Assembly (NCBI GenBank): GCA_026129095.1
Contig: JAHCIT010000005.1
Span: forward strand, 1 to 64,000
Reading direction: 5' to 3'
DNA: 64,000 bases
From: Deltaproteobacteria bacterium
GTDB taxonomy: Bacteria; JAGRBM01; JAHCIT01
Below are positions 38,196 through 57,133 of this stretch, piece by piece. The position numbers and the translations under genes were made by a program. Under the pieces are notes generated by a model. It did not search any database and was not told the DNA's origin. It saw only the letters and a list, made by a program, of their open reading frames with translations. The stretch's first letter is position 1. Every line of letters begins with the position of its first letter.

Positions 38196-38234
38196 AACCG
38201 CACCTCCATTGATATAGTCATTATAAGGGATGCC

Positions 38235-41385: not shown

Positions 41386-43845
41386 ATGGATATTGGTTTT
41401 GAATCGGCTGCGGGTTGGCTGGTGCCGGCATTACTGGCCGCACTGGCTGGAGCCCTGATTGTCTGTCGGCGGATTTATACCGGATCCCGGACGCTCGAAG
41501 CCGAACTTGTCCGGGGGCAGCACCGCCTCCGGATGGTTCTGGAAACCCTGCCAGACCTGTACTTCATCCAAACGGCTGATGGCGTGTTTCTGGAGTGGTA
41601 CGCATCAAATCCGGAGATGCTTGCACTGCCGCCGGAGCAGTTCGTCGGGCGCTCAATGCGGGAAGTACTGCCGGCCGATCTTTGCGAACTGTCGGCGCAG
41701 GCGTTCCAGGAAGCCCGGGCCCAAGGCGCTGCCACGCCGTTTGAATACGCCCTGAAGTTCCAGGGCATGGAACGGATCTACGAGGCCCGGGTTTTTCCCT
41801 ACGGAGAAAAGGAGTTCCTGACAGTAGCCCGGGATATTACGAACCGCCGGCGCATGGAAGAAGGGCTTGTGCGGTCGCGGGAGTTTCTCCAGGACATTCT
41901 GGATTCCCTGGCTTCTTCTATTGCCATTCTGGACTGGAACGGGGTGATTCTGTCGGTCAACGCTGAATGGAACCGTTTTGCGTCCGAAAACGGCGGCAAT
42001 CCACAGACTTGCGGTGCCGGGGCCAGTTATCTGAAGGTTTGCCACCGGGCCAATGGCCCGGGATCGGAAGCGGCCGGAGTGGTCGCGGCCGCCATCGTGG
42101 ATCTGGCGGCGGGAAACCGGGACCGTTGCGAGGTTGAATATCCCTGCCACGGAAACGGAGAGGACCGCTGGTTCGTCGTGCGGCTGAGCAGGTTCAGCCA
42201 TCATGGTCAGGTCCGCATTGTTGCCGCGCACACCGACATAACTGCGAGGAAGCAGTCCGAGATGGCTCTGGCCTCCACGTTCCGGCAGATACAGCAGATC
42301 AAGCGCGAGTGGGAAGCAACCGTCGACACCCTGCCGGAACTGGTTTGCCTTCTTGACAACTCGGGCCGCGTGGTACGTGCAAATCGGCGCATGCTCGACT
42401 GGGGTATTTCAACTTTCGCGGGACTGCCGACACGGCCGCTACCAGATCTGATTTTCCGTGATGCCGGCCCAGGCCCCACTCTCCTGTGGAGCGAGGCATG
42501 GAACCGGATGAAGGCAGAGGGAGTCGGTGGATTTGATCTGGATACACCAGTTTCCGGCCGGTACCTGAAGATCGACCTGAGACCGGTCAGCCAGGAACTC
42601 GGCTCCACGGGAGAAAGTCTGGTGCCATATGCGGTTGCTACCGTTTATGACATCAGCGCACAGGTGAAAGCTGCCCAGTTACGTCAGCAGCTTGAAGAGC
42701 AATTACGTCAGGCGCAGAAAATGGAGATCGTCGGACAGCTGGCCGGTGGGGTGGCGCACGATTTCAACAACCTGCTGGTTGTCATCAACGGATATGCGCA
42801 TGTGCTGATGGCCCAGCTGGACCCGTCGTCACAGATGTGGGAAGACGCCCGGAGCATTTTTGAAACCGGCGAACGTGCGGCCGCCCTGACTCGCCAGCTT
42901 CTCACGTTCAGCCGTCAGCAGATCGCCGAGCCAAGACTGCTCAATGTGGGTGAGGTCGTCGGGGGAATGGAAAAGATTCTCCGCCGCCTGATTCGGGAAA
43001 ACGTGGTCCTGCATTTCAACCTAGAGGCTGGGGGCTGGGAAGTCAGGGCTGATCCCCGCCACCTGGAGCAGATAGTCGTGAACCTGGCGCTGAACTCACA
43101 GGATGCGATGCCCGAAGGCGGTACACTATCCATTTCGGTCCGGGAAATGGTGGATGGCGACGGGCAGGTGCGGTTCGTGGTGCTGGAAACCTCTGATACC
43201 GGAACGGGAATGCCGGCACATGTGAAGGCGCGCATCTTCGAGCCGTTTTTCACCACGAAGGAGGTTGGCAAGGGTACGGGGCTCGGCCTCTCGGTGGTCT
43301 ACGGTATTGTGCAGGGGCTCGGGGGACATGTCGAGGTGGACAGCGAGGAAGGCAGGGGAACCCGGATTCAGATACGGATTCCTGCTGTCGCTTCGACTGA
43401 GGCAGCGGATGAAACCGATGCCCCGCCACTGCCCTCTGGCGGGCAGGAAACGATTCTGGTGGTTGAGGATGAAGAAGCCGTCCGGCAGGTCGCGGTCCGG
43501 ACACTGAAGGGGCTGGGATACCAATTACTTGAATCATCAAGCGGTGAAGATGCCCTACGGATCGCTGCCGCACATCGGGGGGAGATTCACCTGCTGCTTA
43601 CGGATGTCGTGATGCCTGGCATGAGCGGCATCGCACTGGCAAGAGCCATCCAATCAGTCCGGCCGGGAACCCGCTATCTGCTGGTTTCCGGGTATGCGGG
43701 TGACGCCCTGAATGCACTGCCCGGCGTACCGGAACGGCATCTCGTCCTGAAGCCATACCGCCCGGATGACCTCGCCCGAAAGATACGTGAGATACTGGAC
43801 GGTCCGGTCGAACCGGTCCCGGAAGCGAATCCAAATATTCCTTGA
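41386..43845 (+). CDS. Hybrid sensor histidine kinase (TM-PAS-PAS-PAS-HisKA-HATPase-REC)
   Basis: GQLAGGVAHDFNNLL, NLALNSQDAM, FEPFFTTK..GKGTGLGL, VVEDE..TDVVMP..KPY. Confidence 0.93.
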   Translation: MDIGFESAAGWLVPALLAALAGALIVCRRIYTGSRTLEAELVRGQHRLRMVLETLPDLYFIQTADGVFLEWYASNPEMLALPPEQFVGRSMREVLPADLCELSAQAFQEARAQGAATPFEYALKFQGMERIYEARVFPYGEKEFLTVARDITNRRRMEEGLVRSREFLQDILDSLASSIAILDWNGVILSVNAEWNRFASENGGNPQTCGAGASYLKVCHRANGPGSEAAGVVAAAIVDLAAGNRDRCEVEYPCHGNGEDRWFVVRLSRFSHHGQVRIVAAHTDITARKQSEMALASTFRQIQQIKREWEATVDTLPELVCLLDNSGRVVRANRRMLDWGISTFAGLPTRPLPDLIFRDAGPGPTLLWSEAWNRMKAEGVGGFDLDTPVSGRYLKIDLRPVSQELGSTGESLVPYAVATVYDISAQVKAAQLRQQLEEQLRQAQKMEIVGQLAGGVAHDFNNLLVVINGYAHVLMAQLDPSSQMWEDARSIFETGERAAALTRQLLTFSRQQIAEPRLLNVGEVVGGMEKILRRLIRENVVLHFNLEAGGWEVRADPRHLEQIVVNLALNSQDAMPEGGTLSISVREMVDGDGQVRFVVLETSDTGTGMPAHVKARIFEPFFTTKEVGKGTGLGLSVVYGIVQGLGGHVEVDSEEGRGTRIQIRIPAVASTEAADETDAPPLPSGGQETILVVEDEEAVRQVAVRTLKGLGYQLLESSSGEDALRIAAAHRGEIHLLLTDVVMPGMSGIALARAIQSVRPGTRYLLVSGYAGDALNALPGVPERHLVLKPYRPDDLARKIREILDGPVEPVPEANPNIP

Positions 43846-43945
43846 ATATCAAAGCAATATGGGGCGGGCACTACCAAAGCATGTCTTTCCAGAAGCCAAG
43901 GTTCCGGTTTTGATATGACCCAGCCTTCCTGAAGCCGGCAATCCT

Positions 43946-46018
43946 TCAAACCTCGACTGACGCCGCTTTTGCAGGGTCTTCCGCATCGGGCAACCACATC
44001 ATGGGGGTTGCCGTATCGGCAAAAATCACTTGCCGGCGGCCGGACTCCTTGGCGCGGTATAATCTGCGGTCTGCAACCTTCAGAAGATCATCCAGGCTTT
44101 CGCCATCCGCGCCGAATGACGCCACTCCTGCACTGAAAGAGCATCTGAAATTGCCTCCATGATCGTCCGGGAATGCAAGCTCACAGAATTCGTTCAGGAG
44201 CCGATCAATAATCTGGCCAGCAGTTGCTGCGTTCTGGCCGGGCAACATGAGAACAAACTCCTCGCCACCCCACCGCCCTCGAAGGTCTTCCTTCCGGAAT
44301 CGCAACTGCACAAGATGCCCAAAACCGGAAATTACGCGGTCGTCAGCCAAATGTCCCCGCTGATCGTTCACCTGCTTGAACCGGTCGATATCAATCAGGC
44401 ACAGGGACACGGGCCTGTCCCTCCGCCGTGCGTCAGCAAGGATGACCTGGGCATTTTCGGCAAAAGGCCGGCGGAGAAGCAGGCCCGTCAGCGAATCCTT
44501 TGCAGCCAGTTCCCTTTCGAGCCGGGCACGATCCAGCCGCACCTTGATCCGGGCCAGCAACTCCGCTTCCACGAATGGCTTGCTGACATAGTCGTCCGCA
44601 CCGGCACGAAAGGCCGCCAGCCGCACATCAAGGCCGGTCAGTGCGGTCGTTACGATTATGGGCAGGTTTCTCCATGCGGTTGACTGGCGAAGCAGCTTGC
44701 AAATATCAAAACCGCTGACTCCAGGCATCAGGATATCCAGTATCAGAAGTCCAGGCCGCACTTCCGACATCGCCTCCATGATGTGGGCAGTAGACGTTAG
44801 AGTATATGTTGAAAAACCGTTTCGGGTCAGAATATTGCTGGCAAGTACAGAGAACCGTTCGTCATCATCCACAATCATGACCGGTATGCCTGTGTTTAGC
44901 CTCGCATCCCTGAACTCCCTGAAGGTGCCACGGACAGTCTCCAGATCAAGTGGTTTCTCCAGAAAACGCGCTGCGCCAAAATGGACAGAATCAATACGGT
45001 CCTGAAAGCGGCCTGCCATGCCGATAAACGCAACCGGCACATCCGGAAATACCCTGGTCAGATTCATGGCCTCACGTCTGTCCTCCGGACCGGGCAGTTC
45101 GAAGTCTATAAAGAGCCCTTGCAGCTTGCCCTGACCCTTTTCGATTGCCAGAGCATCAGCCAGTGTGGCGGCCACCAGCGAACGGACTCCAGCTTCAAGG
45201 CAGCAAGCCTCAACCGCCCGAACGACATTCCTGTCTGTCGAGATGACAAGCATGGTCGCTGCTTCCACTCCCAGACAGTCCTCATGACTCTCTTTTCCCT
45301 CTTCTGGTGAAATGGCCGCACATGAGCTGGAGAACCGCGCGAGACGTAGTTTAGCAGTTTCGGCAAGAACTCCGCTCTCAGGCGCAGCCATGAGTTCGAC
45401 CAAGACGTCCTCAAGCTCTGCCGCAGCGGTTCCAACTTCCAGAAAACCGTACAATGCGGCTGTGCCCCGGATATTGTGTACCTTGATCCGTGCGTGGGCT
45501 ACGTCGGTTTCGGAATACCCAATGTTGAGCAATCGTGTGACCACATGCTCAAGTTCTTTGACAACGTGGACCAAGGAACCTTGGAACTCCCTGTGCAGTT
45601 CATTGATCTCAGGATCATGCAGGCCTGCAATACACTTCACAGGTGGTATGGGCTTTTTCGGAAGCAGCATCTCTATCTGTTCCACCAGGACCGGAATCTG
45701 AACCGGCTTGTGCACCACGAGCATCACACCCAGATCATTGGTCAGGAGCTGATAGCTCTTGAAATCCCTCCAGAATGAAGAGACAAATACCACCGCGACC
45801 TGGCACCCGCTGGAGCGAATGCCGGCTATCCAGTCCAGCCCATTCGTATCCGGCAGAAGACCGTCCACAACCACCAGATCAATAGTGCAATGCCTAAGAT
45901 GTTCGGTAGCCTCCCGCCCGGTAGCGGTGGTAGTGACGTCATGGCCAGCCAAACGGAACTGTGCCGCCAGTGGTTCGGAAAAATGACGGTCGTCTTCCAG
46001 TAGCAGAATTGATGCCAT
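43946..46018 (-). CDS. REC-Hpt-REC(degenerate)-REC-GGDEF diguanylate cyclase
   Basis: LLEDD..VDGLLP; HNIRGTA..YG (Hpt); LDILMP; DIDRFKQVND..RKED..RWGGEEF. Confidence 0.9.
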   Translation of the reverse strand: MASILLLEDDRHFSEPLAAQFRLAGHDVTTTATGREATEHLRHCTIDLVVVDGLLPDTNGLDWIAGIRSSGCQVAVVFVSSFWRDFKSYQLLTNDLGVMLVVHKPVQIPVLVEQIEMLLPKKPIPPVKCIAGLHDPEINELHREFQGSLVHVVKELEHVVTRLLNIGYSETDVAHARIKVHNIRGTAALYGFLEVGTAAAELEDVLVELMAAPESGVLAETAKLRLARFSSSCAAISPEEGKESHEDCLGVEAATMLVISTDRNVVRAVEACCLEAGVRSLVAATLADALAIEKGQGKLQGLFIDFELPGPEDRREAMNLTRVFPDVPVAFIGMAGRFQDRIDSVHFGAARFLEKPLDLETVRGTFREFRDARLNTGIPVMIVDDDERFSVLASNILTRNGFSTYTLTSTAHIMEAMSEVRPGLLILDILMPGVSGFDICKLLRQSTAWRNLPIIVTTALTGLDVRLAAFRAGADDYVSKPFVEAELLARIKVRLDRARLERELAAKDSLTGLLLRRPFAENAQVILADARRRDRPVSLCLIDIDRFKQVNDQRGHLADDRVISGFGHLVQLRFRKEDLRGRWGGEEFVLMLPGQNAATAGQIIDRLLNEFCELAFPDDHGGNFRCSFSAGVASFGADGESLDDLLKVADRRLYRAKESGRRQVIFADTATPMMWLPDAEDPAKAASVEV

Positions 46019-46038
46019 GCCTTACCCTCAAACCTCGC

Positions 46039-46494
46039 TCAAGCCGCCACGCTAGATATTTCTGGTTGAACCGCCGCCCGTACGTCGGCCAGGCCAGCGG
46101 CATTTGATCTGCGGCGGGCAAGGATCTGTTCGACGTTCTCAACCAGAGAGGCAGGAATGAAAGGCTTTCGAATCGTGGCGATTGCGCCTATGGATCTGTA
46201 GAAATCTGCCGCTCCGGCATCCGAAGCGGCGGTCAGGAAAGCGACCGGAATGCTAGCAGTAGCCGCCGACTTGAGAATGTATTTGAGCGTCTCAGGTCCG
46301 CTCATCACTGGCATGATTGAATCCAGCAGAATCAGGTCAGGAAGATTTTCACCAATTACCGCGAGGCCTTCCACTCCGGAGGCCACTGAAATGACATCCA
46401 TTTTCCCGATTCTGCGCAAGGAGATTTCCACCAATCGCCGGACGAACCGGTCATCATCAATCACGAGAATCTTGGGTTGGATGCTTCCAAGCAT
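46039..46494 (-). CDS. Single-domain response regulator
   Basis: VIDDD, LDSIMP, FLTA, KPF. Confidence 0.9.
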   Translation of the reverse strand: MLGSIQPKILVIDDDRFVRRLVEISLRRIGKMDVISVASGVEGLAVIGENLPDLILLDSIMPVMSGPETLKYILKSAATASIPVAFLTAASDAGAADFYRSIGAIATIRKPFIPASLVENVEQILARRRSNAAGLADVRAAVQPEISSVAA

Positions 46495-46585
46495 TTTGTT
46501 TCCCTTTTAAGTCCAAGCTCCCCCTGGCATTTTGGAAGTGTGGGCTGGAGCGGGTTCTTCCCGGTCATGAAACAGGCAAGAGAGA

Positions 46586-47188
46586 TCAATTGAACTCCTT
46601 GGAGCCGCTCCCCGCGGTCGCCAGCCGGATCTCACGGGCATCCCGGAGATCTGGACCCAGAAACTGCCGGTTGAGGAAGGTCATCGCTATCGGCATGCTC
46701 GAGAAGCTCCCCAGAGGCGTCAGCGATGCGGTGAAGGGACCGGACTCTGTAACCCTGTGCTCCAGCCAGATGAGATGCAGCTTTTCCAAGCGAGCTACCG
46801 CGTCCATGACCTGGGTACGTGTCAGTCCGCTTTCCCGGGCGAACTCCCGAAGACCCGCCCGGTCGTGCTTGTTCAGCACCGTCAGCAGCATCATGTCGCT
46901 GCGCGTGACAGGAACGTCCAGAATGATAGACAGTTCCCGGGCCCCGGCATCGAGACGGGCATAGTCTTCTTCGCGGCCCCTGGGCGGCTGAAGGCCATCG
47001 AACAAGCCGGTATGCACCCCCGCCGCCTCGGCTGTCACCGGGCTCATCATGGCGGTAACACCAATAGATATGGGGTTTGTCCCCACCGCACTTATCGCGA
47101 CAATTTCAGCACCCGCACAGGCCTGGAGCAGCAGAATGGAAACCGTACCAAGCATCCGGATCGGCGATTTGAAGAAACAGGCTTTCAT
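46586..47188 (-). CDS. Hypothetical protein with lipoprotein-like signal and C-terminal wHTH-like region
   Basis: SILLLQAC at Cys24; LREFARESGLTRTQVMDAVARLEKLHLI..SLTPLG; RBS GGAG; sigma-54 motif upstream. Confidence 0.6.
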   Translation of the reverse strand: MKACFFKSPIRMLGTVSILLLQACAGAEIVAISAVGTNPISIGVTAMMSPVTAEAAGVHTGLFDGLQPPRGREEDYARLDAGARELSIILDVPVTRSDMMLLTVLNKHDRAGLREFARESGLTRTQVMDAVARLEKLHLIWLEHRVTESGPFTASLTPLGSFSSMPIAMTFLNRQFLGPDLRDAREIRLATAGSGSKEFN

Positions 47189-47234
47189 GGTCATTCTCCC
47201 CGGGGTCTCAGGCCCCATGCACGCCACGACTAAT

Positions 47235-47249
47235 ACAAGCGCCGTGCCA
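47235..47249 (-). promoter_or_regulatory. Sigma-54 (-24/-12) promoter
   Basis: TGGCAC-GGCGC-TTGT (T instead of C at -12); perfect IHF box at 47266-47278; palindromes further upstream. Confidence 0.75.
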
Positions 47250-47388
47250 TCCGGCGAGGGACTTGTAACTCGTTGATTGGGCGAGGATTTCGTATTTGTC
47301 CGGATCGCAAGGCCCTCGATCCACTGGGTCAACGGCAACCCTGGTTTGCTTTATGTGGTCAGCAATTACCCCGCCCCTGGAGGAAAAA

Positions 47389-47435
47389 GTTACGTCAGTA
47401 GTCGTAACCAGAAGCCGTTTGCGTAAAAACGCAAA
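47389..47435. promoter_or_regulatory. Candidate enhancer (UAS) palindromes
   Basis: GTTACG-N8-CGTAAC (47389-47408) and TTTGCGT-N4-ACGCAAA (47418-47435), 140-185 bp upstream of the sigma-54 motif. Confidence 0.6.
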
Positions 47436-47487
47436 TGCACAAGCTCCAGACCAGAAGCTGTGGCTGATTAGGTGATGGTATATCGAT

Positions 47488-47970
47488 TCAGCCGGACACT
47501 GAGCTGCGCAGCAAGTATCCTTCCGGATAAAGTGCCCGATCCGGAGACGTATCGCGCTCAGGCTCGTGCGCCAGCCGCCGACGAATATCCACGGTCAGGC
47601 GGTCAGGCTGAAAACTACCCTTGGCGAGCATTTCCAAAACATCGGCCTTCGACAGGTAGAGGTCCACGCCATCCCGGACCCCGCAATAGGGATCCTCTGT
47701 ATCCGGGCTTCCAGTCATCACAACGGTCATCGGCCGGGAATCCGCAAAAGCTCCGCGCGCTGCGATCCGTTCGCAAAAATCGAAGCCCGATGGGCCCGGC
47801 ATGATCTGGTCGGCAAATATGATATCGGGACGAGCAAAGGGCACCAGTTCCAGTCCCTCGCGGGCATTTGCGGCGTACCACACCCGATGCCCGGCCTGCT
47901 CAAGGGGTTTTCCCAGACGGCGGCGAAAGAACGGGTCGTCGTCAACGATCAGTGTCCGTGGGTTCCTCAT
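47488..47970 (-). CDS. Response regulator receiver protein with short C-terminal extension
   Basis: IVDDD, ADQIMP, VMTG, YLSK. Confidence 0.85.
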   Translation of the reverse strand: MRNPRTLIVDDDPFFRRRLGKPLEQAGHRVWYAANAREGLELVPFARPDIIFADQIMPGPSGFDFCERIAARGAFADSRPMTVVMTGSPDTEDPYCGVRDGVDLYLSKADVLEMLAKGSFQPDRLTVDIRRRLAHEPERDTSPDRALYPEGYLLRSSVSG

Positions 47971-48011
47971 TTCTGGATACGCTCCATTTGTCCGCAGGTT
48001 TCCCAGGCCAG

Positions 48012-48515
48012 TCAGGACGCAAGTGCGATCACCGGAAGCGGCTTGAACCGGGCCACATGACGATTGCCTGCTTCATCCGGAACCGCTCCGGCCAGCCAGC
48101 GGGGCTCCTGCTCGCTTACCAGCCGCCGGCGAATATCGTGAGGAAGTCTCTCATTCTGGAAAGCCCGGCTATCCATGAGACGGATAAAATCCCTCTTGGA
48201 CATGTAAAGATCGACTCCGAAATCAGTCGCATGAAAATGGTCGTTCGCTTCCGGGCTGGCCGTAACGACGAAAGTCCAGGGGCCGTCCTCTTCGCTTAGC
48301 GGTGGCCTGGCCAGGCTGCATACCTCGATACCGGTCAAATACGGCATCAGTTCGTCGGCCACCACCACATCCGGGCGCACCCGGCGGCAAATCCGCGAGG
48401 CCTCTTCGCCATTCGCGGCCGTCCAGACCCGGTGACCTTCCTCATGCATGTGGTCTGCCACCACTTTCACAAAAAACGGGCTGTCATCAGCTACAAGGAC
48501 TCGCAGTTTTCTCAT
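48012..48515 (-). CDS. Response regulator receiver protein (tandem paralog)
   Basis: VADDS, ADELMP, VVTA, YMSK; shares GHRVW.A.N, GVDLY.SK and DIRRRL with its neighbour. Confidence 0.85.
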   Translation of the reverse strand: MRKLRVLVADDSPFFVKVVADHMHEEGHRVWTAANGEEASRICRRVRPDVVVADELMPYLTGIEVCSLARPPLSEEDGPWTFVVTASPEANDHFHATDFGVDLYMSKRDFIRLMDSRAFQNERLPHDIRRRLVSEQEPRWLAGAVPDEAGNRHVARFKPLPVIALAS

Positions 48516-48545
48516 GGCAATCTCCCAACTCCTGGAGATGCTCAA

Positions 48546-48560
48546 GCAAACCGCGGGCCC
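48546..48560 (-). promoter_or_regulatory. Sigma-54 promoter (variant)
   Basis: GGGCCC-GCGGT-TTGC (GG-N10-GC), 30 bp upstream of the ATG at 48515. Confidence 0.6.
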
Positions 48561-48761
48561 TTCATGATGAGATGGACTGCCGAAACGAGAGAATGCACGA
48601 AAATCTAGATATCCTCTTTAAAATCAAGTGGATGGGCGATTTTCAAATTCGCCAATATGATCAGGCCTTGAGGTGGGAGCCCCGGTTTCCACCATTTTCC
48701 TGCTGCCAGAGGGGAGGTTCGCAGTCATAAGAAACCCGGGGTGGGTAGGTAAGCAGCGGCC

Positions 48762-50204
48762 TTATGCTTCTGGATCGCCTTCATCTCCATTTGCATCTGA
48801 CCCGTGCAAGCCGCTCTTCTGGAGCAGACGCCGGAAATTGCTTCGATCCATGCCGGCCAGCGAAGCCGCCTTGGAAATGTTCCCGTCCGCCTGTTTCACC
48901 ATGTAACTGAGATAGGCGGCATTGAACTGCTGGAGAAAGCGGTCCTTTTCATCCTGGTAGCTCCCGCCAAACGGGCCTGCCATGTCCATTCCTCCAGGAA
49001 TGGCCTCGCCAGCAGTCAACGGGCCGGGTGATGCAGCCGTGCCGGGAATCCCCTGGACCGCAATCAGTCCACCCTTCCCGAACACAACAGACCGTTCCAC
49101 CACATTCTTCAACTCACGGATATTGCCCGGCCAGGAATAGCTGCGTATCGCCGCCATGCCCTCTGGTGTGAAACCTTCAGCAGGCTTACCGTACTTTTTC
49201 GCAAACATCTGGAGAAACAGGTGAGCAAGCAGCTCGGCATCTCCCGGCCGGGACCGGAGCGGCGGGGCCTCGATGCGGATTACATTCAGCCTGTAGAACA
49301 GGTCCTCCCGGAAGGTCTTCTTGCGGACTTCAGCCTCAAGATCACGGTTGGTGGCTGCAATGATCCGGGTATTGACAGTACGGGTCTGGGAGCTTCCCAC
49401 CCGGCGCACTTCCCCTTCCTGTATGGCTCGCAGCAGCTTGGCCTGGAGCTGAAGGGCGAGTTCGCCAATCTCATCCAGAAAAAGCGTGCCGCCGTCAGCC
49501 GCCTCAAACAGGCCGGCACGGGGCTTGTCGGCACCGGTAAAGGCCCCCTTTTCGTGGCCGAACAGTTCCGATTCGACCAGCGTTTCAGTAAAGGCCGAGC
49601 AGTTGGCTATGACAAACGGCCCATCGCGGCGTTCCGAATGCTCGTGGAGCGACCGGGCAAGAAGTTCCTTGCCAGTTCCGCTGTCACCGGTAATCAGTAC
49701 CGGAGCACCGGTCGGCCCAGCCGTCTCCACCAGGCGGCGAATCTCCTCAATCTGGGAGCTTTGACCCAGGATCATTGCTGCCGCCGGCTGGTTTGACTGC
49801 TCCAGTTCCCGCGCCTTGCGGCGCAGCCGGACCAGTTCTCCGGCACGCTGGACAAGGAAAACAAGCCGCTCGGCATCGAACGGTTTCAATAGGTAATCAT
49901 AGGCTCCCTCGCGTACCGCGGTAATCGCCTGCGGCACGTCGCCATGGGCCGTGATAAAGATGACCTCCGGTTCGCCGGGTAGTTTCCGATAGTCCGAAAG
50001 AGCATCGAGTCCCGTGCGGCGCGGCATCGAAACGTCAGAAACCACGACATCCACTGTTCCGTCAGGAAATCCATTTAACGCCCGTTCCACATCCGGGAAA
50101 GTCCGCACACTCATCCCTTTCCCACCCAGAATACGCGAATACAGGGTCAGGATGGCCTGCTCATCATCGACCAGGGCGACAACCAGCGGAGTATCAAACT
50201 GCAT
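48762..50204 (-). CDS. Sigma-54-dependent response regulator (NtrC/AtoC family)
   Basis: REC, GDSGTGKE, ELFGHEKGAFTGA, LFLDEIG, FREDLFYRL, WPGNIREL, Fis-type HTH. Confidence 0.95.
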   Translation of the reverse strand: MQFDTPLVVALVDDEQAILTLYSRILGGKGMSVRTFPDVERALNGFPDGTVDVVVSDVSMPRRTGLDALSDYRKLPGEPEVIFITAHGDVPQAITAVREGAYDYLLKPFDAERLVFLVQRAGELVRLRRKARELEQSNQPAAAMILGQSSQIEEIRRLVETAGPTGAPVLITGDSGTGKELLARSLHEHSERRDGPFVIANCSAFTETLVESELFGHEKGAFTGADKPRAGLFEAADGGTLFLDEIGELALQLQAKLLRAIQEGEVRRVGSSQTRTVNTRIIAATNRDLEAEVRKKTFREDLFYRLNVIRIEAPPLRSRPGDAELLAHLFLQMFAKKYGKPAEGFTPEGMAAIRSYSWPGNIRELKNVVERSVVFGKGGLIAVQGIPGTAASPGPLTAGEAIPGGMDMAGPFGGSYQDEKDRFLQQFNAAYLSYMVKQADGNISKAASLAGMDRSNFRRLLQKSGLHGSDANGDEGDPEA

Positions 50205-50347
50205 TCGCCGGGAAATCCTTCCGATGGATCCAGTGGAGCTTGGACTTGTGAAAGGAACTGTAGCCTTATCAGAATGTAGTAGCCAGCCATGAAATCCCGT
50301 TATCCGGATCGTCATGGACTGCCTCGCTGTTCCCTGCGCGGCCGGCA

Positions 50348-50749
50348 TCAGACACCCGGCCTGATATCCAGAAATTCTCCCAGGCGGCTCAGCACATCCA
50401 CCAGCACGGAAAGTGGCCGCCTCCACCTGTCACCGACGGAGTCACGCGCCCCCCTCGACAGCAGTTCAAGCTCCGTTTCGGCCCGGCCCGCCATCATGCC
50501 AATACTCTCAAAACCGAATATCCCAGCTCCACCGGCGATTGAATGGACAAGGCGGTGGAGCTTGCGGGCTTCCCCGGGCTGCGGCCGGGCGGCACCAGGT
50601 GCCAGAAAGGGCTCGCACAGGCTGGCCGTTCGCACCGCCTCGGTCAGGAATTCGATCTGGAGATCGTCGATATTGTCGCCAACTCCCTGTGCAATACCGA
50701 AGGAACGTGCCGGGGTGTCCGCGAGAGCCTGTGTAGCAGCGCCTTGCAT
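50348..50749 (-). CDS. Stand-alone Hpt domain protein
   Basis: LHRLVHSIAGGAGIFGF..A...E; RBS GGAGG. Confidence 0.85.
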   Translation of the reverse strand: MQGAATQALADTPARSFGIAQGVGDNIDDLQIEFLTEAVRTASLCEPFLAPGAARPQPGEARKLHRLVHSIAGGAGIFGFESIGMMAGRAETELELLSRGARDSVGDRWRRPLSVLVDVLSRLGEFLDIRPGV

Positions 50750-50811
50750 GACTGGAATCCTCCGTTGACCTGCCTTCCTGACTCAACCGCCAGCGGGGCG
50801 GCGCCGGTGGA

Positions 50812-51399
50812 CTAAAGCGAGATCCGGGTATCGGGTTCCGGCTGCATCCCCCAAGACTTCGTTTCGTAGGCATAGACCGCTGCATCTGGCGGAATGGCTC
50901 CGGCAGTATTCACGCTGCCATCGATCCGGGCGCCGCGCAGATCGGCCCCAGCCAGCCGGGCGCCTTCCAGCCGGGCGCCGCGCAGATCGGCGCCGCGCAG
51001 ATCGGCGAAGGAGAGGTCCGCATTCTCCAAGTTGCTGCCCCGCAGGTCGGCCCCCTGAAGTTTGGATCGTGACAGATTCGCACCACTGAAGTCGGACCCA
51101 CTGGCCGCAGTCTCATTGAGAACAGCGAATCTCAGGTCTGCCTGAATGAACTTCACGCCCGAGATATCCCGGCCAGTCAGATTGGCAGCGGCAAGCCGGG
51201 CTCCCTCGCAGGAAAACCCCGAATCCAACAGGATATTATCGTGACACATCAAACGTCCGTCGAGACGGGTATGCATGTTGTCCGCGACGATCGGTCCCTT
51301 CATCGCACACCCAGACGACAGGGCAATGTGCAGTAAACCGATGATGGCCGTAATGACGACGTTGAAGGCCAGTTTCGTTTCGATGGTTCCGGTTTTCAT
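50812..51399 (-). CDS. Pentapeptide-repeat lipoprotein
   Basis: Lipobox-like LSSGC; repeated A(D/N)LxG units; RBS GAGGAG. Confidence 0.85.
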   Translation of the reverse strand: MKTGTIETKLAFNVVITAIIGLLHIALSSGCAMKGPIVADNMHTRLDGRLMCHDNILLDSGFSCEGARLAAANLTGRDISGVKFIQADLRFAVLNETAASGSDFSGANLSRSKLQGADLRGSNLENADLSFADLRGADLRGARLEGARLAGADLRGARIDGSVNTAGAIPPDAAVYAYETKSWGMQPEPDTRISL

Positions 51400-51427
51400 G
51401 ATCGCAGTCTCCTCGACTGTGCCAAGA

Positions 51428-51442
51428 GCAACCGGAGTGCCA
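51428..51442 (-). promoter_or_regulatory. Sigma-54 promoter
   Basis: TGGCAC-TCCGG-TTGC, a perfect consensus, 28 bp upstream of the pentapeptide gene. Confidence 0.85.
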
Positions 51443-51737
51443 TCGCTTACAAAAGGATGGCGACGAATATGAGGGAAGAGCTGCAAGCCCATGGAAATCC
51501 TTGGATATCCGGATTTTCCATCTGCGGCAGGCAACCCGTTTTTGATCTGCTAGGATCCCTACTTTCCCGGTGTCCAATGTTACCCGCCGGGTTCCTAATG
51601 ACCCCAAAATACAGATCCGATCTGCCTCCTTGCTGGTACTGGCACCAAAACTCCGACAGGAGCCAGGCACCATGCAGAACGCTAAAATCATTGGGTTCTG
51701 CCTCCTTGAGGCAAATTGTATCCAGGTTTGGGTTGTT

Positions 51738-51752
51738 TGGCCCGGCTGTTGC
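51738..51752 (+). promoter_or_regulatory. Sigma-54 promoter (divergent)
   Basis: TGGCCC-GGCTG-TTGC, ~50 bp upstream of the ATG at 51802. Confidence 0.75.
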
Positions 51753-51801
51753 TTCATCCAGAAGCGGGCACATCGTGCCCCGGAAGAGGAAGTACCCGAG
51801 G

Positions 51802-52722
51802 ATGAATGCAAAACCGAAGACAAAAACCCAAAGTACGCAACGCAAGGTGCGCCCTGCCGGAGCCAAGAAGTCCGCCCTTACCGGGGCACGTTCCAGCAAG
51901 CGCGTTTCCATGAAGGAAGGCGCTGACAAGCCTGCACCGGCCCGTCGAAAGGTATCTGTCCCGGCCCGGCGCAGTATGCGCCGGAAGATACCCACTGCGG
52001 CCGACGCCATCATGGCAATTCCACTCGGCCACAAGCCCGAAGTCCGTCGGAACCCGGACCGCCGCTTGGAAGTCATTTCGGCAGGAGCCGTGCTGGTGGC
52101 CTCGGTGGCCATTGTCCTTGGGATAGCGCTCACCGGGCCCGAGCCCGTTCCTCCAACACCCGTTCCGGCCACTACCGCACCTGCTGATAGCGCAGTGCCC
52201 ACGCCCGCCGAACCAGAGCAGACTGCCAAGCCCCAGCCCGACACAAAACCCCCGGCAGCACGGAAGACTACCGCGGCCAAGCCGAAACCTGCCCCGGTAG
52301 TTCTGGCCGAATGGGCCCGCCCGGCCATCGACGTACGGATGCACAACATCAGACGGCTCTATTGGAACATCATGCAGGACGGCGAAGGGCCTGTGGGTGA
52401 GCTGGCCGTCCACCTTCAGGTAGAACCGGAGGGACATGTGAGCCGTGCCTGGGTTGAGCGGAGCACGCTCGCCCGCAATTACGGGTCTTTCGAAGCCAGT
52501 GTGGTGAGGGAACTCATCTCTGCACCCTTCAACGCAACTGGCGCGGACCGGCCACTGGGCGTCGTTGTCCCGATCGCGTTCGACGGCACGCAGAGCATTG
52601 TCGAACGGATCCTGGCAAGCGACGCAACGGATCCGGTCAGTTCCGGACGGCCTTATGCACAAGTCTTGACGCGGGAAATGCCGGGGGTGGCAGATGCCAG
52701 CCGGCATGCCTCCGCTTCCTGA
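51802..52722 (+). CDS. Bitopic membrane protein with TonB-like AgmX/PglI-type C-terminal domain
   Basis: Lys/Arg-rich N-terminus, one TM, Pro/Ala/Thr linker, IRRLY..G.L.V.L.V.PEG.V....VERSTL..VVVPIAF. Confidence 0.7.
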   Translation: MNAKPKTKTQSTQRKVRPAGAKKSALTGARSSKRVSMKEGADKPAPARRKVSVPARRSMRRKIPTAADAIMAIPLGHKPEVRRNPDRRLEVISAGAVLVASVAIVLGIALTGPEPVPPTPVPATTAPADSAVPTPAEPEQTAKPQPDTKPPAARKTTAAKPKPAPVVLAEWARPAIDVRMHNIRRLYWNIMQDGEGPVGELAVHLQVEPEGHVSRAWVERSTLARNYGSFEASVVRELISAPFNATGADRPLGVVVPIAFDGTQSIVERILASDATDPVSSGRPYAQVLTREMPGVADASRHASAS

Positions 52723-52746
52723 AACGTCCCTTACCTCCTCCTCCAT

Positions 52747-52782
52747 GGCAGCTCTCTCATGACGAGGGAGCTGCCCCTTTTT
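52747..52782 (+). terminator. Rho-independent terminator
   Basis: ggcagctctctc-atgac-gagggagctgcc followed by a T-tract. Confidence 0.8.
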
Positions 52783-52947
52783 GTTACAAAAATATCAACG
52801 GAAGCCAGCGGGAAAATGGTTCTCCGCCTTGCCAGCAGAAAACGCAATCATTAAAATGTTTTTCAGTTTCGACATTTTTCACCTTTACTGTTTTGGCTGT
52901 GCCGCGCCATCAAGCGCGAATATGGACAAGGCAAGAGCAGATCAGGC

Positions 52948-54753
52948 ATGAGACTCAACTTTGACCGGAAATCTGCTTTGGGACTGGTTGCTGCCATCCT
53001 GCTGGTTGTCGCAGCAGGCACGGCTGCCTATCTCGATCTCCACCAGTTCCGCGACACAGTCAAACGCGTTTCACATAGCCATAGAGTTCTTCTGAAGTTG
53101 GAACATATTCGCTCGCTCATGCAGGATGAGCAGATCGGTGTACGTGGCTTCGTCATTACCGGTGACGCCCGCTCGCTGGAGACCTATTTCCATACGCGAG
53201 CAGTGATTTCCGATGAGCTGGGCAGCCTCCGCCGGCTGACATCCGATAACCCGGCATACCAGGCCCGCATCCAGAAACTGGAATCCCTGATTCGCCAGCG
53301 GTTCGACCTGAGCGAACAGATCATCAACCAGCGGAAAACCACCGGGGCAGAAACCGGGGAAGCCCTGTCTCTGATTACCCATGCCGCACAGTATATGGAA
53401 CGTATTCGCGGGATTGTCGATGCAATCGAAACCGGGGAAACCCGGTTCCTCGAAGAGCGTACCCGCCGGGCAGAAGCCGATTCCCGGATGACACTGATGA
53501 CGCTGGGGGTATTCGGAACGCTCGGGGTCGTGGCCATTGTCGCGTTTGTCATGCTGCTCAACCGGGAGCTCGGCCGCAGCCAGCAGTTCGAGCAGGCACT
53601 TCGCCGGGAAGAAGAACGGCTCAGATCCATCATGGACAACAGTCCGCTTGTCATTTTTCTAAAGGATACCGAAGGCCGCCACCAGTTCGTCAACCAGGAG
53701 TTCCTGGACGCCTTCCGGCTGGACCGTTCCCACGTCATCGGCCGTGCCGATAGGGAAATCTTTCCTCCTGAAATCGCCGACAAGTTCATGTCAAACGACC
53801 GCGAAGTAATGGCGACCGGCCATCCCGCCCAGTTCGAGGAAACCGCCAACCGTGATGGAGTCCCTCATATTTACTCTGTCGCCAAGTTCCCGCTCCGTGA
53901 GCCCGGCGGAAGGATATATGCCATTTGCGGCATGGCCTCCGACATTACTGAACGGAAGAAAGCCGAAGAAACGATCCGGGGGCTGAGCGATTCCCTCATT
54001 TCCCGCACCCAGCAGCTCGAAGCCGCCAATCACGAGCTTGAGGCTTTCAGTTATTCCGTTTCTCATGATCTCCGGGCACCACTCCGGAGCATCAATGGCT
54101 TCAGCCAGGCCCTGATAGAGGATTACCGGGACAAGCTGGAGCCCGCCGCACAGGACTATCTGAACCGGATCATGGTGGCCACCCGGCGCATGGGGCATCT
54201 CATTGACGATCTGCTGGAACTGTCACGGGTCACACGCGCTGACATATGCGGACAGTGGGTGGACCTGAGTGCTCTTGCCCGGAGCGTCATGGACGAACTC
54301 CGGCAGTCAGCACCCGGCCGGGAAGTCCACGCCACCATTAAAGATGGCATCTCCGGCTGGGGAGACACCAGACTCCTCCGGGTCATCCTGACAAACCTTC
54401 TTGGTAACGCCTGGAAGTTCACTTCAAAAACTCCTTGCCCATCCATTGAATTCGGGAGCATTGCGCATCCGGACGGCACTGCTACCATTTTTGTACGTGA
54501 CAACGGCGCCGGCTTCGACATGGCCCACGCAAAAAACCTCTTTGGCGTGTTTCAGCGCCTTCATTCTACATCAGAGTTCGAAGGAACAGGGATTGGCCTG
54601 GCGACCGTCCGGAGGATCGTGCAGCGGCACGGCGGTATGGTCCGGGGCGAAGGCCGGCCGGGTGAAGGCGCGGTATTTTACTTCACGCTGGGCCGCCCCC
54701 GGGTGTCTGCGGAAGGAGCAGCTGGTGAGCAGCAAATATATTCTGCTGGTTGA
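52948..54753 (+). CDS. Sensor histidine kinase (TM-CHASE3-TM-PAS-HisKA-HATPase)
   Basis: VSHSHRVL..G.RGFVITGD (CHASE3); FSYSVSHDLRAPLR; NAWKF; FQRLH..FEGTGIGLA. Confidence 0.93.
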   Translation: MRLNFDRKSALGLVAAILLVVAAGTAAYLDLHQFRDTVKRVSHSHRVLLKLEHIRSLMQDEQIGVRGFVITGDARSLETYFHTRAVISDELGSLRRLTSDNPAYQARIQKLESLIRQRFDLSEQIINQRKTTGAETGEALSLITHAAQYMERIRGIVDAIETGETRFLEERTRRAEADSRMTLMTLGVFGTLGVVAIVAFVMLLNRELGRSQQFEQALRREEERLRSIMDNSPLVIFLKDTEGRHQFVNQEFLDAFRLDRSHVIGRADREIFPPEIADKFMSNDREVMATGHPAQFEETANRDGVPHIYSVAKFPLREPGGRIYAICGMASDITERKKAEETIRGLSDSLISRTQQLEAANHELEAFSYSVSHDLRAPLRSINGFSQALIEDYRDKLEPAAQDYLNRIMVATRRMGHLIDDLLELSRVTRADICGQWVDLSALARSVMDELRQSAPGREVHATIKDGISGWGDTRLLRVILTNLLGNAWKFTSKTPCPSIEFGSIAHPDGTATIFVRDNGAGFDMAHAKNLFGVFQRLHSTSEFEGTGIGLATVRRIVQRHGGMVRGEGRPGEGAVFYFTLGRPRVSAEGAAGEQQIYSAG

Positions 54754-55162
54754 GGACAATCCCGATGACGAGGCGCTCACATTGCGTACGCTCCGCAAAT
54801 GTGGTCTTGCCAACGAAGTACATGTTGTCCGCGACGGTGCTGAAGCACTCGATTTTCTTTTCAAGGCCGGTCGCTACGAGAACCGGAGCCCCAATGACCT
54901 GCCAGCCCTGATCCTCCTGGATCTCAAGCTGCCGAAAATTGACGGGCTGGATGTCCTGAAGCGGATACGTGCGGATACCGGCACGAAGCTGCTGCCGGTC
55001 GTCATATTCACTTCATCGAAAGAGCAGCAGGATCTCCTTGCCGGGTATACGAATGGTGCAAACGGATATGTACGGAAGCCTGTTGATTTCGCCGAATTCG
55101 CCGAAGCGGTGGCGGCCCTTCACCTCTACTGGATGATTACCAACGAGCCCATCCCAAGGTGA
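54725..55162 (+). CDS. Single-domain response regulator (Rcp1-like)
   Basis: GTG start; LLVEDNPDD, LLDLKLPKIDG, FTSS, RKPVDF. Confidence 0.92.
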   Translation: MSSKYILLVEDNPDDEALTLRTLRKCGLANEVHVVRDGAEALDFLFKAGRYENRSPNDLPALILLDLKLPKIDGLDVLKRIRADTGTKLLPVVIFTSSKEQQDLLAGYTNGANGYVRKPVDFAEFAEAVAALHLYWMITNEPIPR

Positions 55163-55177
55163 TCCGGGAAAGTAACA

Positions 55178-57133
55178 ATGAGTGAGAGCCCGCAGATCAG
55201 GGTCCTTTTCATAGAAGATTCCGAGGATGACGCCCTGCTCGCCATCCGTGAAATCAGTCATGGCGGATTCTCCGTGGATTACCAGCGTGTGGAGACTGCT
55301 GATCAAATGCAGACGGCGCTGGAAAAATCCGAATGGGATGTGGTGATCTGCGACCATCACATGCCCAGGTTCAACAGCTTTTCCGCCTTGCGTCTCCTCA
55401 AGACGATGCGGCCCGACATCCCGTTCATTTCCGTGTCTGGTACGCTCGGAGAGGATATGGCCGTCGAGGCAATGCGGGCAGGTGCCTATGACTACATGAT
55501 CAAGTCCAACCTGAAGCGCCTCGTTCCCTCCATCAGCCGCGCACTTCGGGAAAACGAGAGCCGCAAGGCCCATCGGGCGGCCGAAGACCAGCTTCGCCTG
55601 CTGGAGGCCGCCATACGAGGCATTCATGAGGGTGTAGTGGTGACGGATGCCCGGCTTGATCCTCCCGGTCCAACCATCGTCTTCGTGAATGACTACCTCT
55701 GCCGGCTGACGGGGTATGCTCCAGGTGAACTGATCGGCAAAACCCCCCGCCTGTTCCAGGGATCCAAAACCGACCGGCAGTTGCTGGATTCACTGAAGAG
55801 GGCTCTCCGTTCCGGACAGCCATTCACTGGCGAAACGGTCAACTACCGGAAGGACAGATCTGAATACCTGGCGGAGTGGCATATTTCGCCGGTCAGGGAC
55901 CGCGATGGAAACATATCGAATTTCATCTCAACACAGCGGGATCTGACAGAACGCCGGCGGGCCGAGCAGCGGCACGCCGAAATGGAACGCCAGTTCCGGG
56001 TGGCCCAGAAACTGGAAGCGGTGGGCCAACTCGCTGGCGGCATTGCTCACGATTTCAACAATCTGCTGGTGGTCATCAACGGATACGCACAAATGCTCCG
56101 TAACAATCTCGCCGGCCAGGCCCGGCAGCAGGAAGATGCCGGGTTGATTCTCCAGGCAGGCGAGCGGGCCGCCGATCTCACACGGCGGCTGTTGACATTC
56201 AGCCGGCAGGACACCCGTAATCCACGCCGGACTACCCTGAATGATATTATCAAAGGGTTTGAGAAGATGCTCCGGCGGCTCGTCCGGGAAGACATAGACC
56301 TGCAATTCCACCTCGCATCCGATATCCGCCACATAAAGGTAGATCCGGGCCAAATGGAACAGATTCTGCTGAACCTCAGCATCAACGCATCCGATGCCAT
56401 GCCCCACGGCGGCATACTTGCGATTGAAAGCCGGAATGGGGAGCTGTCCGCATCCAACCTCAATCCACTTTTTGACGCAAAACCGGGGCATTACTCAGTC
56501 CTGACGGTTCGCGACAACGGCACTGGCATCAGCGAGGACATCCTGTCCCGTATTTACGAGCCGTTTTTCACCACCAAGGGAGACGGAAAAGGAACAGGCC
56601 TGGGGCTCGCCACCGTGCTTGGAATTGTGAAAGCCCACGGTGGCCTAATCCGGGTTCGCAGCCGCGAGGGCGAGGGAACCGAGTTCCAGATATATCTACC
56701 AGAGAATACCGCCGCACAGGAACAGTCCGCACGGCCTATCCAACCCGTGACCGGTGGTAGCGAGACTATACTGCTCGTCGAAGACCAGCCCGAGGTTCGG
56801 ACCGTAGCAGCACGCATACTGGCCGGGTTTGGCTACCAGGTGATAGAGGCGGGCAATGGCGAGGAAGCGCTCGAAGCCGCTGCACGGCATTCGGGACCAG
56901 TCCACCTGCTGCTTTCCGATGTAATCATGCCCCGGATGAGCGGTCCGGCACTGGCCGACCGCCTCCTGCAGCAGAGGCCGGATACCCGTGTCCTGTTCGT
57001 ATCCGGTCACATTTCGGACGTGACTGGCAAGCACGTTCTCCTGAATGAATCGTCCGAACTGCTCAGAAAACCCTACCATCCAGACGATCTGGCCAGAGCG
57101 GTGCGAAGCGCTCTTGACCGGAAAAGACCGTGA
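55178..57133 (+). CDS. Hybrid kinase REC-PAS-HisKA-HATPase-REC
   Basis: IEDSEDD..CDHHMP; PAS with NYRKD; GQLAGGIAHDFNNLL; PFFTTK; SDVIMP. Confidence 0.93.
   Translation: MSESPQIRVLFIEDSEDDALLAIREISHGGFSVDYQRVETADQMQTALEKSEWDVVICDHHMPRFNSFSALRLLKTMRPDIPFISVSGTLGEDMAVEAMRAGAYDYMIKSNLKRLVPSISRALRENESRKAHRAAEDQLRLLEAAIRGIHEGVVVTDARLDPPGPTIVFVNDYLCRLTGYAPGELIGKTPRLFQGSKTDRQLLDSLKRALRSGQPFTGETVNYRKDRSEYLAEWHISPVRDRDGNISNFISTQRDLTERRRAEQRHAEMERQFRVAQKLEAVGQLAGGIAHDFNNLLVVINGYAQMLRNNLAGQARQQEDAGLILQAGERAADLTRRLLTFSRQDTRNPRRTTLNDIIKGFEKMLRRLVREDIDLQFHLASDIRHIKVDPGQMEQILLNLSINASDAMPHGGILAIESRNGELSASNLNPLFDAKPGHYSVLTVRDNGTGISEDILSRIYEPFFTTKGDGKGTGLGLATVLGIVKAHGGLIRVRSREGEGTEFQIYLPENTAAQEQSARPIQPVTGGSETILLVEDQPEVRTVAARILAGFGYQVIEAGNGEEALEAAARHSGPVHLLLSDVIMPRMSGPALADRLLQQRPDTRVLFVSGHISDVTGKHVLLNESSELLRKPYHPDDLARAVRSALDRKRP

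Follow-up and report, generated by a model that had tools for sequence, protein, structure and literature searches.

A probable multi-input phosphorelay within an integrase-less unit of a tandem array at a tRNA-Lys(CTT) gene

Introduction

Does a run of signalling genes that lies between two direct repeats form one circuit, and does that circuit travel with mobile DNA? The question is raised by positions 41386-57133 of the stretch analysed here, a window of 64,000 nt (C19:1-64000) from the 3.67-Mb genome of a Deltaproteobacteria bacterium (G000; 23 contigs, 96.65% complete). A first-pass annotation, made from the letters alone, had described this 16-kb block as a self-contained phosphorelay, cyclic di-GMP (c-di-GMP) and sigma-54 module and had proposed that it is mobile cargo carrying a portable circuit. 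In this report, we confirm that observation and find partial support for its interpretation. The block is probably one multi-input phosphorelay specific to a small family of uncultured bacteria, as argued by a core gene set that stays linked in two relatives and by predicted sigma-54 promoters that are conserved before two of its envelope protein genes. Its place between attachment (att)-type repeats is clear in structure, and the cluster itself appears to be old in the family. The two relatives, G001 and G002, belong to the family of G000 and both fall in one sister genus; the phylum is sampled by six species genomes.

Results

Gene content of the cluster

Domains were called with Pfam, and gene starts were then refined from the translations of open reading frames and from start-site checks. 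Both bear out 13 genes in 41386-57133, between repeat copies 2 and 3, as follows.

41386-43845, plus strand: hybrid histidine kinase HK1 (transmembrane region, two to three PAS domains, HisKA, HATPase, REC)
43946-46018, minus strand: REC-Hpt-REC-REC-GGDEF diguanylate cyclase (GGEEF at residue 584, RxxD I-site, Hpt His181)
46039-46494, minus strand: RECa, single-domain response regulator (Pfam)
46586-47194, minus strand: winged-helix lipoprotein of 202 residues (LQAC lipobox, disordered tether, MarR-like winged helix)
47488-47970, minus strand: RECb, single-domain response regulator, paralog of RECc
48012-48515, minus strand: RECc, single-domain response regulator (Pfam)
48762-50204, minus strand: NtrC-type enhancer-binding protein (REC, sigma-54 AAA+ domain with GAFTGA, Fis-type helix-turn-helix with a weak Pfam match)
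50348-50749, minus strand: stand-alone Hpt phosphotransfer protein (GGAGG ribosome-binding site 8 nt upstream)
50812-51399, minus strand: pentapeptide-repeat lipoprotein (SGC lipobox invariant in all three orthologs)
51802-52722, plus strand: TonB-like protein, monocistronic
52948-54753, plus strand: CHASE3-PAS histidine kinase without a receiver domain (canonical H-box SHDLRAP)
about 54740-55162, plus strand: RECd, single-domain response regulator (start codon not fixed; overlaps the end of the kinase gene)
55178-57133, plus strand: HK3, hybrid kinase, REC-PAS-HisKA-HATPase-REC (Pfam)

The inventory of signalling parts given by the first-pass annotation held up throughout. All three of the histidine kinases that it counted are recovered by Pfam, and its estimate of about 11 REC domains becomes exactly 11, each of which keeps the acceptor Asp and the conserved Lys. 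Both claimed Hpt domains are present: the stand-alone protein scores 28.6 bits against the Pfam cut-off of 24.6, and the domain inside the cyclase, at 22.4 bits, lies under that cut-off, carries the His-x-x-Arg-Gly motif and has an ortholog in G002 that reaches 29.2 bits. The GGDEF domain of the claimed cyclase (Pfam 3.4e-33; RKEDLRGRWGGEEF at residues 575-588) is predicted to be active by its GG(D/E)EF motif and an RxxD I-site five residues upstream. The claimed NtrC-type activator has the make-up of an NtrC-family enhancer-binding protein, with Response_reg (6.7e-26), Sigma54_activat (2.9e-70) and AAA_lid_14 (2e-20) matches, a weak HTH_8 match (E 0.0038) and GAFTGA legible in the translation. 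HK1 and HK3 are paralogs, with 48% identity over the kinase core and REC. The three genes that had been set apart as two lipoprotein-like and one TonB/AgmX-like are indeed two lipoproteins and a TonB-like protein, and the lipoproteins could be specified as a pentapeptide-repeat protein and a protein with a MarR-like winged helix. Beyond the 13 genes, the unit additionally contains a fragment of an IS5-family (DUF4096) transposase. In NCBIfam, all 13 proteins stay below the cut-offs of the whole-protein models (equivalog, subfamily or exception), and the only NCBIfam model passed among them is the generic one for the GGDEF domain (131.6 bits against 37.4).

As a side observation, RECb and RECc (47488-48515), together with relatives in G001, G002 and locus L103, share a C-terminal extension with an R-L-x-x-D-I-R-R-R-L motif and have the usual Lys-Pro exchanged for Ser-Lys-Ala or Ser-Lys-Arg; the group may be a distinct receiver subfamily.

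Linkage and descent in related genomes

Scattered core genes in relatives would have spoken against the claim of a single linked module; instead, the counterparts are grouped. By tblastn, G002:C3:7.1-24 kb has counterparts of 12 of the 13 genes (all except the stand-alone Hpt) and G001:C5:104-117.5 kb of 10 (without the Hpt, the cyclase and RECa), at 42-65% amino-acid identity. The set linked in all three genomes consists of the winged-helix lipoprotein, a REC protein, the activator, the CHASE3 kinase, a further REC protein, HK3, the pentapeptide lipoprotein, the TonB-like protein and HK1. A DNA search among 61 genomes including G000 gave matches in 44, and besides G000 itself only G001:C5 and G002:C3 matched in several segments on a single contig; the other matches listed are mostly conserved AAA+ or ATPase cores.

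The pattern of divergence fits an inherited cluster. The activator is 61-62% identical to its counterparts in G001 and G002 and at most 42% identical to its four best paralogs in G000, where no second, 'native' copy of the cluster was found. Identities between G001 and G002 exceed those to G000 for the activator (79% against 61-62%), HK3 (60% against 48%) and the lipoprotein (56% against 49-54%), and HK1 is likewise closer between these two (50.5%) than to G000. These distances follow the species relationships, so that G000 stands as the outgroup to the sister genus, as vertical descent predicts. The clusters of G001 and G002 are flanked by core genes (2-oxoacid dehydrogenase, acyl-CoA ligase, aldehyde dehydrogenase, PhoX and amidase), with no integrase nearby and no att repeat on their contigs.

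The accessory proteins are narrowly distributed. The TonB-like protein occurs in three of the six species genomes of the phylum, and the winged-helix lipoprotein in all three other genomes of the family and in neither of the two sister-family genomes. An exhaustive profile search among 1.84 billion representative proteins returned four hits (E up to 0.001), and a metagenome scan found one locus, on a 3.3-kb contig with the same local gene order. A contig scan with the activator, which yields no synteny information, gave generic NtrC-family paralogs of many phyla (36-47% identity among the 80 retained of 602 confirmed stretches). Judged by these searches, the accessory proteins are nearly confined to the six-species phylum, and the cluster appears to be old in the family, not a recent import from another phylum. 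A portable circuit in the broad sense, as first proposed, is therefore unsupported, since the clusters of the two relatives lie among core genes without att sites or integrase and the accessory proteins are nearly confined to the lineage.

Promoters and candidate outputs

Candidate sigma-54 sites were sought as GG-N10-GC elements; G000 has an rpoN gene at C17:71242. Four elements lie in the centre of the block.

51427-51442, minus strand: predicted sigma-54 promoter, perfect (TGGCAC-N5-TTGCT), about 27 nt upstream of the pentapeptide lipoprotein ATG
51738-51753, plus strand: weaker sigma-54-like element (TGGCCC-N5-TTGCT), 64 nt upstream of the TonB-like ATG
52747-52775, plus strand: intrinsic terminator (12-bp stem with 8 G-C pairs, T tract), directly after the TonB-like gene
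52829-52857, plus strand: sigma-70-like promoter (TTGCCA-17-TAAAAT, 10/12), preceding the CHASE3 kinase operon

The perfect element before the pentapeptide lipoprotein gene is followed by a GAGGAG ribosome-binding site ahead of the ATG, and it aligns in register in all three genomes (G000, G001 and G002). The element before the TonB-like gene likewise has GG-N10-GC counterparts in both relatives, 75 nt (G001) and 91 nt (G002) before the ATG. The two envelope genes are set apart from the kinase genes in both relatives, which matches the terminator and the kinase-operon promoter of G000. Because predicted sigma-54 promoters precede both envelope genes in three of three genomes, these two genes are the likely outputs of the circuit, and the envelope-located outputs foreseen in the first-pass annotation are plausible. 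A weak sigma-54-like element also lies upstream of RECc (48560-48545, minus strand), with stronger ones at the same place in G001 and G002, and G002 has another before its receiver-cyclase operon.

The lipobox Cys of both lipoproteins is invariant in all three orthologs. The first, with a PF00805 score of 127.6 bits against a cut-off of 20.2, is a pentapeptide-repeat protein for which no NCBIfam equivalog reaches its cut-off. A structure model of the second (from a five-row alignment) predicts a disordered tether at residues 1-71 and a winged-helix core at 72-160 (pLDDT about 85), whose top PDB matches are MarR-family proteins (TM-score 0.4-0.5, E about 1e-3). We do not regard it as a MarR-family transcription factor: its Pfam matches are below threshold (MarR_2 18.6 bits against 27; HVO_A0114 20.6 against 27.6), and the conserved lipobox predicts export. 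G000 has three copies of this protein, counting two paralogs besides that of the module, and each has kinase or activator genes no more than about 3 kb away. This placement fits an accessory role in sensing, and the protein more likely assists signalling than serves as an output.

The TonB-like protein has a basic cytoplasmic N-terminus, one transmembrane helix, a Pro-rich linker and a C-terminal domain, which an AF2 model covers at residues 165-285 with pLDDT 85-93. In a Foldseek search of the PDB, the top seven of seven rows for this domain are the C-terminal domains of FusB, HasB or TonB (TM-score by target 0.34-0.66), and in the ESM Atlas the protein has feature scores of 0.94 and 0.93 against two clusters in which TonB_C is carried by 31% and 43% of the members, respectively. 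We conclude from the modelled structure that the domain is predicted to have the fold of the TonB C-terminal domain. A word-based homolog search with the protein returned only itself, its Lys- and Pro-rich words having probably swamped the search. A complex prediction for residues 32-195 of the pentapeptide lipoprotein and 160-292 of the TonB-like protein scored 0.00, which is no answer and counts as evidence neither way.

A tandem array at tRNA-Lys(CTT)

The flanking repeats on which the idea of mobile cargo was founded are real, 40592-40851 and 57265-57524 being 92% identical over 260 nt. This 260-nt repeat is present six times in the genome: five copies share one orientation on C19 within 39 kb (36485, 40592, 57265 and 67413, plus a partial copy at 75051), and one lies at the edge of C14. 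The last is the site of the only tRNA-Lys(CTT) gene of G000 (C14:c90-165), and the 47-nt core of the repeat, the 3' end of that gene, is 100% identical in the four full C19 copies. Around each core, arms of about 132 nt on the left and 82-154 nt on the right are conserved, differing by 3-16%. In the fifth copy, from which the terminal 5 nt of the core are missing, 41 of the 42 positions that align with the core agree (97.6%); this copy is followed by core metabolic genes. A dispersed repeat or miniature inverted-repeat transposable element can be set aside, as there are only six places, of which five are co-oriented and the sixth is the tRNA gene. Rfam and ARAGORN called nothing in the window. 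The layout is that of a tandem array of integrated elements, which runs from the tRNA gene (attL) through attP-like junctions to attR. Its junctions around the signalling block and its units are as follows.

40592-40895, plus strand: attP-like junction, copy 2, left boundary (P arm 40592-40722, core 40723-40769, P' arm 40770-40895)
57265-57524, plus strand: attP-like junction, copy 3, right boundary (P arm 57265-57395, core 57396-57442, P' arm 57443-57524)
40786-41265, minus strand: IS5-family (DUF4096) transposase fragment, a truncated open reading frame running into the P' arm
36.7-40.6 kb: array unit with ArdC-like, Fic and HAD genes
between copies 2 and 3: array unit with the signalling module
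57.5-67.4 kb: array unit with MoaA and a type II DMSO-reductase-family operon
67.7-75.05 kb: array unit with a receiver-less sigma-54 activator, two large proteins without a family match and an XRE regulator

An integrase is absent from all four units. To the left of copy 1 lie a tyrosine integrase gene (18643-19944), copper/cation efflux genes, a terminase-like gene and a ParB-methylase gene. An element of G001 (contig C4) has an integrase of 44% identity, after which come terminase-like and ParB-methylase genes (72-79%), and its end is formed by the same P-O-P' sequence; the arms therefore belong to a family of integrase-bearing, phage-like elements.

The signalling module fills the space from the end of one P' arm (40895) to the start of the next P arm (57265) almost exactly, with the transposase fragment as the sole extra. 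By Pfam, no recombinase, relaxase or transfer family is represented among its 13 genes. With att-site boundaries and no integration or transfer genes of its own, the transposase fragment being its only mobile-DNA gene, the module is by sequence an integrase-less unit, like a cis-mobilizable element (CIME), of the tandem array.

Is the unit mobile?

The proposal of mobile cargo stands as to structure, in that the module is a unit between att-type repeats; present-day movement is conjectural, the unit having no integrase of its own and giving no sign of excision in public contigs. The latter were assembled from four public runs, end at the repeats and are silent on rare forms. In runs from several studies of soil, activated sludge and wastewater, the module is nearly unchanged, and the contigs contain no valid excision joint. 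Two joints that might have signalled excision or circular forms were rejected. That which skips 16405 nt (40895 to 57301, run X3) is explained by a contig of the array unit that copies 4 and 5 bound: copies 4 and 2 have right arms that are 90% alike as far as 40895, and the left arm of copy 5 matches copy 3 from 57301. That which goes back 18309 nt (run X1) is explained by a contig that extends from 57471 to copy 4.

In its strong form, the idea of a portable cassette says that an integrase from elsewhere, such as that at 18643-19944, excises the unit, which is passed between strains alone or with its neighbours. Several features favour it: the core is 100% identical in four copies while the arms differ by 3-16%, which fits repeated site-specific recombination; the module occupies the space between the arms so closely; the cluster has a different locus in each of the three genomes; and CIMEs and tandem accretion are documented elsewhere, in passages of PMC5704250 and PMC3146451. 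In addition, the transposase fragment (40960-41283) shares 92% DNA identity with G001:C30, against about 70% for the cluster genes, which points to recent DNA movement in the lineage, and C14 joins the right arm of copy 1 at 100% identity, which suggests alternative joins in the sampled population. Against it, the unit has no integrase, excisionase or transfer gene, the contigs of the G001 and G002 clusters have neither att repeat nor adjoining integrase, protein distances track the species relationships, the accessory proteins were not found outside the lineage, and the lone joint that skips the unit is accounted for by another unit in contigs that end at repeats. We consider the strong form unlikely. 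A wider version makes the array an exchange site for large cassettes, at which integrase-less modules (signalling, respiratory and regulatory) are shuffled between strains by an integrase acting in trans from a phage-like element. We hold this to be rather doubtful; were it true, members of the phylum would trade whole circuits as ready-made cassettes, each bringing along its own envelope outputs under sigma-54 control.

A side observation concerns the entry to the array. C14 ends 89 nt past the intact tRNA-Lys(CTT) gene, and its core and arm (136 nt) are 100% identical to copy 1 (window 36617-36752), which gives two assembly-graph entries into that junction. This suggests either that strains differ in array content or that some of the population has lost, by excision, the stretch to the left of copy 1.

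Other contents of the array and the window

Several further observations were made around the array. In G001:C4:12400-17850 (L104), integrase, terminase and ParB-N/DNA-methylase genes lie within about 5 kb, a layout recalling phage satellites. The terminase large-subunit homolog is T7-like, at 69 bits, below the cut-off. In G000, the corresponding stretch (18643-36485) holds genes for a CopA-like ATPase and CusCBA-like efflux, together with an insertion sequence (IS), between the integrase gene and the terminase and methylase genes. The P' arms all carry a conserved minus-strand sigma-54-like element (TGGACCC-N4-CTGCA, 12.5 of 16.5 points) at 36721, 40827, 57500 and C19:67648. It reads toward the preceding unit, so that the element of copy 4 points at the respiratory operon, with the receiver-less activator just beyond.

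That respiratory unit (57544-67224) consists of MoaA and a divergent type II DMSO-reductase-family enzyme, for which the unit encodes an alpha subunit (1161 aa), an Fe-S beta subunit (425 aa), a chaperone and a gamma subunit in which two cytochrome c domains are fused to an EB_dh heme-b domain. Its subunits score well below the NCBIfam subfamily cut-offs (355 bits against 985 for alpha, for example), and it may be a mobile respiratory module. In the last unit, adjacent proteins of 978 and 552 aa without Pfam or NCBIfam match are followed by an XRE-type helix-turn-helix gene (C19:69645-74712). The ArdC-like and HAD-hydrolase pair (37134-40462) has a second copy at C1:236983-239112 (64% and 84% identity), about 4 kb from the tmRNA gene (C1:242919-243284) and adjoining a 434-aa open reading frame, which points to another island, similar in content, at ssrA. 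About 10 kb of metabolic genes just left of IS fragments are enclosed by a 60-nt inverted repeat (5170-5229 and 15375-15434; 77% complementary), which may represent either a composite transposon or what is left of IS ends.

Discussion

We propose the following path for the signal. The CHASE3 kinase would detect something outside the cytoplasm and act on RECd, on the N-terminal receiver of HK3, or on both. HK1 and HK3 would pass phosphate to the Hpt domains, one stand-alone and one inside the cyclase protein, and the endpoints would be the NtrC-type sigma-54 activator and the REC-Hpt-REC-REC-GGDEF cyclase, the presumed maker of c-di-GMP. The activator would turn on the sigma-54 promoters of the two divergent envelope genes, those of the pentapeptide lipoprotein and the TonB-like protein, and the winged-helix lipoprotein would act as a signalling accessory rather than an output. 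In G000, the lipoprotein promoter may also transcribe the Hpt, the activator and the genes behind them, giving positive feedback; the activator could drive itself in this way because the lipoprotein gene came to lie ahead of the Hpt and activator genes.

Several observations weigh against this proposal. The relay path is by sequence not conserved in detail, as the stand-alone Hpt has no counterpart in the G001 and G002 clusters at E 1e-5 and the cyclase is missing from that of G001. The strict sigma-54 consensus occurs three times in G000 against 3.2 expected from composition, so that support for the promoters comes from their position and conservation, and the three genomes in which they are conserved are kin and not independent. 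About 20 sigma-54 activator paralogs are encoded in G000 (20 tblastn hits), and we infer the pairing of the module activator with these promoters from adjacency alone. As for the TonB-like protein, a search against Pfam TonB_C (PF03544) gave no family even at E up to 5, its transmembrane helix has no His in any of the three orthologs, and ExbBD genes are absent from the 13 module genes, the rest of the genome not having been searched for them. The transmembrane helix of TonB has a Ser/His motif for coupling to ExbB-ExbD. The cluster locus also differs in each of the three genomes, and the module proteins (42-65%) are less conserved than eight flanking core genes (61-82%); the cluster may have been exchanged within the lineage.

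Such doubts could be taken to mean that there is no single circuit, and that unrelated two-component systems have gathered in a plastic region with the three non-signalling genes as bystanders. The gene order is indeed shuffled among the three genomes, the G001 cluster has no stand-alone Hpt, cyclase or RECa, HK1 and HK3 are recent paralogs, and clusters of this kind often occur in genomes rich in two-component genes. Yet the core set remains linked in three of three genomes despite rearrangement, a fourth, metagenomic contig holds two REC genes, the lipoprotein gene and a convergent hybrid kinase gene together, and the block itself supplies both an Hpt for its hybrid kinases and sigma-54 promoters for its activator, which makes a chance gathering very unlikely. 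It may also be asked whether the target of the module lies outside it, for example in the neighbouring respiratory operon (57544-67224), with the envelope genes under another activator. The respiratory unit does adjoin the module in the array, and every P' arm has a minus-strand sigma-54-like element, one of them upstream of that operon; these elements are weak, however, a receiver-less sigma-54 activator (C19:68129-69634) lies directly upstream of the respiratory unit, and the clusters of G001 and G002 do not adjoin such an operon. We regard an outside target as highly improbable and retain the single relay with its two envelope outputs as the probable reading.

If this reading is right, the block is a compact example of a many-kinase relay that ends in both sigma-54 transcription and c-di-GMP synthesis, with two direct target genes identified through predicted, conserved promoters. 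It would also define three nearly lineage-confined families, namely a lipid-anchored winged-helix protein, a pentapeptide-repeat lipoprotein and a divergent TonB-like protein. A regulatory cluster that is chromosomal in one genus would lie between attachment sites in a sister genus, possibly a snapshot of how arrays of integrative elements capture or release host circuits. Current ideas are not overturned by this; known themes are extended to a poorly sampled lineage. The first-pass annotation had not recognised the block as a described system, and no curated family or paper names it: besides the NCBIfam result given above, full-text searches returned no paper joining CHASE3, sigma-54, Hpt and diguanylate cyclase, and none joining pentapeptide repeat, TonB and sigma-54. 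It is an unusual arrangement of familiar parts and not a new kind of system.

The relay most likely works, by analogy, like the LuxU-LuxO cascade, with kinases feeding an Hpt that serves both the activator and the cyclase. In Vibrio quorum sensing, as described in passages of PMC5394107, the hybrid kinases LuxN, LuxQ and CqsS feed the Hpt protein LuxU and, through it, the sigma-54 activator LuxO. The module similarly has hybrid kinases that end in REC (HK1 and HK3), a small separate Hpt and a receiver-bearing REC-AAA+-HTH activator, with the Hpt and activator genes adjacent. The activator is not a LuxO ortholog (NF041946, 346.7 bits against a cut-off of 800). The module differs in its inputs, which are CHASE3 and PAS domains instead of autoinducer receptors, in its likely targets, which are two envelope protein genes instead of the Qrr small RNAs, and in having, in addition, a branch to a cyclase, four more single receivers and a kinase gated by a receiver. 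The cyclase resembles PleD and WspR in joining receivers to a GGDEF domain with GGEEF and an RxxD I-site, but differs from PleD by its built-in Hpt and third receiver; with 221.2 bits against the NF007135 cut-off of 474 and an architecture other than REC-REC-GGDEF, it falls outside the PleD family. The TonB-like protein shares with HasB and FusB, which are dedicated TonB paralogs, the predicted fold of the C-terminal domain and a single transmembrane helix followed by a Pro-rich linker. Unlike them, it has no Pfam TonB_C match, no His in the transmembrane helix and no adjacent ExbBD or TonB-dependent receptor genes, and it is paired with a pentapeptide-repeat lipoprotein behind a predicted sigma-54-type promoter.

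The setting of the module also has described counterparts. Integrase-less units bounded by att sites are treated in passages of PMC5704250 as cis-mobilizable elements, formed and linked by accretion, with islands related to ICESt1 and ICESt3 and a composite island at a tRNA-Lys gene of S. agalactiae among the examples. The chain of islands at ssrA in Dehalococcoides, in which some islands have no integration genes and a serine recombinase is involved, is, in the portions of PMC3146451 that describe it, the closest described picture to our array. As far as these passages go, such islands and the array have in common that co-oriented direct repeats of the 3' end of a small-RNA gene bound successive units downstream of it, that some units have no integration genes and that whole functional modules are carried, a respiratory enzyme included. 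The integrase-bearing member here combines a tyrosine recombinase with terminase-like and ParB-methylase genes, whereas the recombinase described for Dehalococcoides in those portions is of the serine type. The junctions here, moreover, keep conserved arms of 130-150 nt on both sides and resemble whole attP sites, and the cargo is a probable signalling circuit that in the relatives of G000 is chromosomal.

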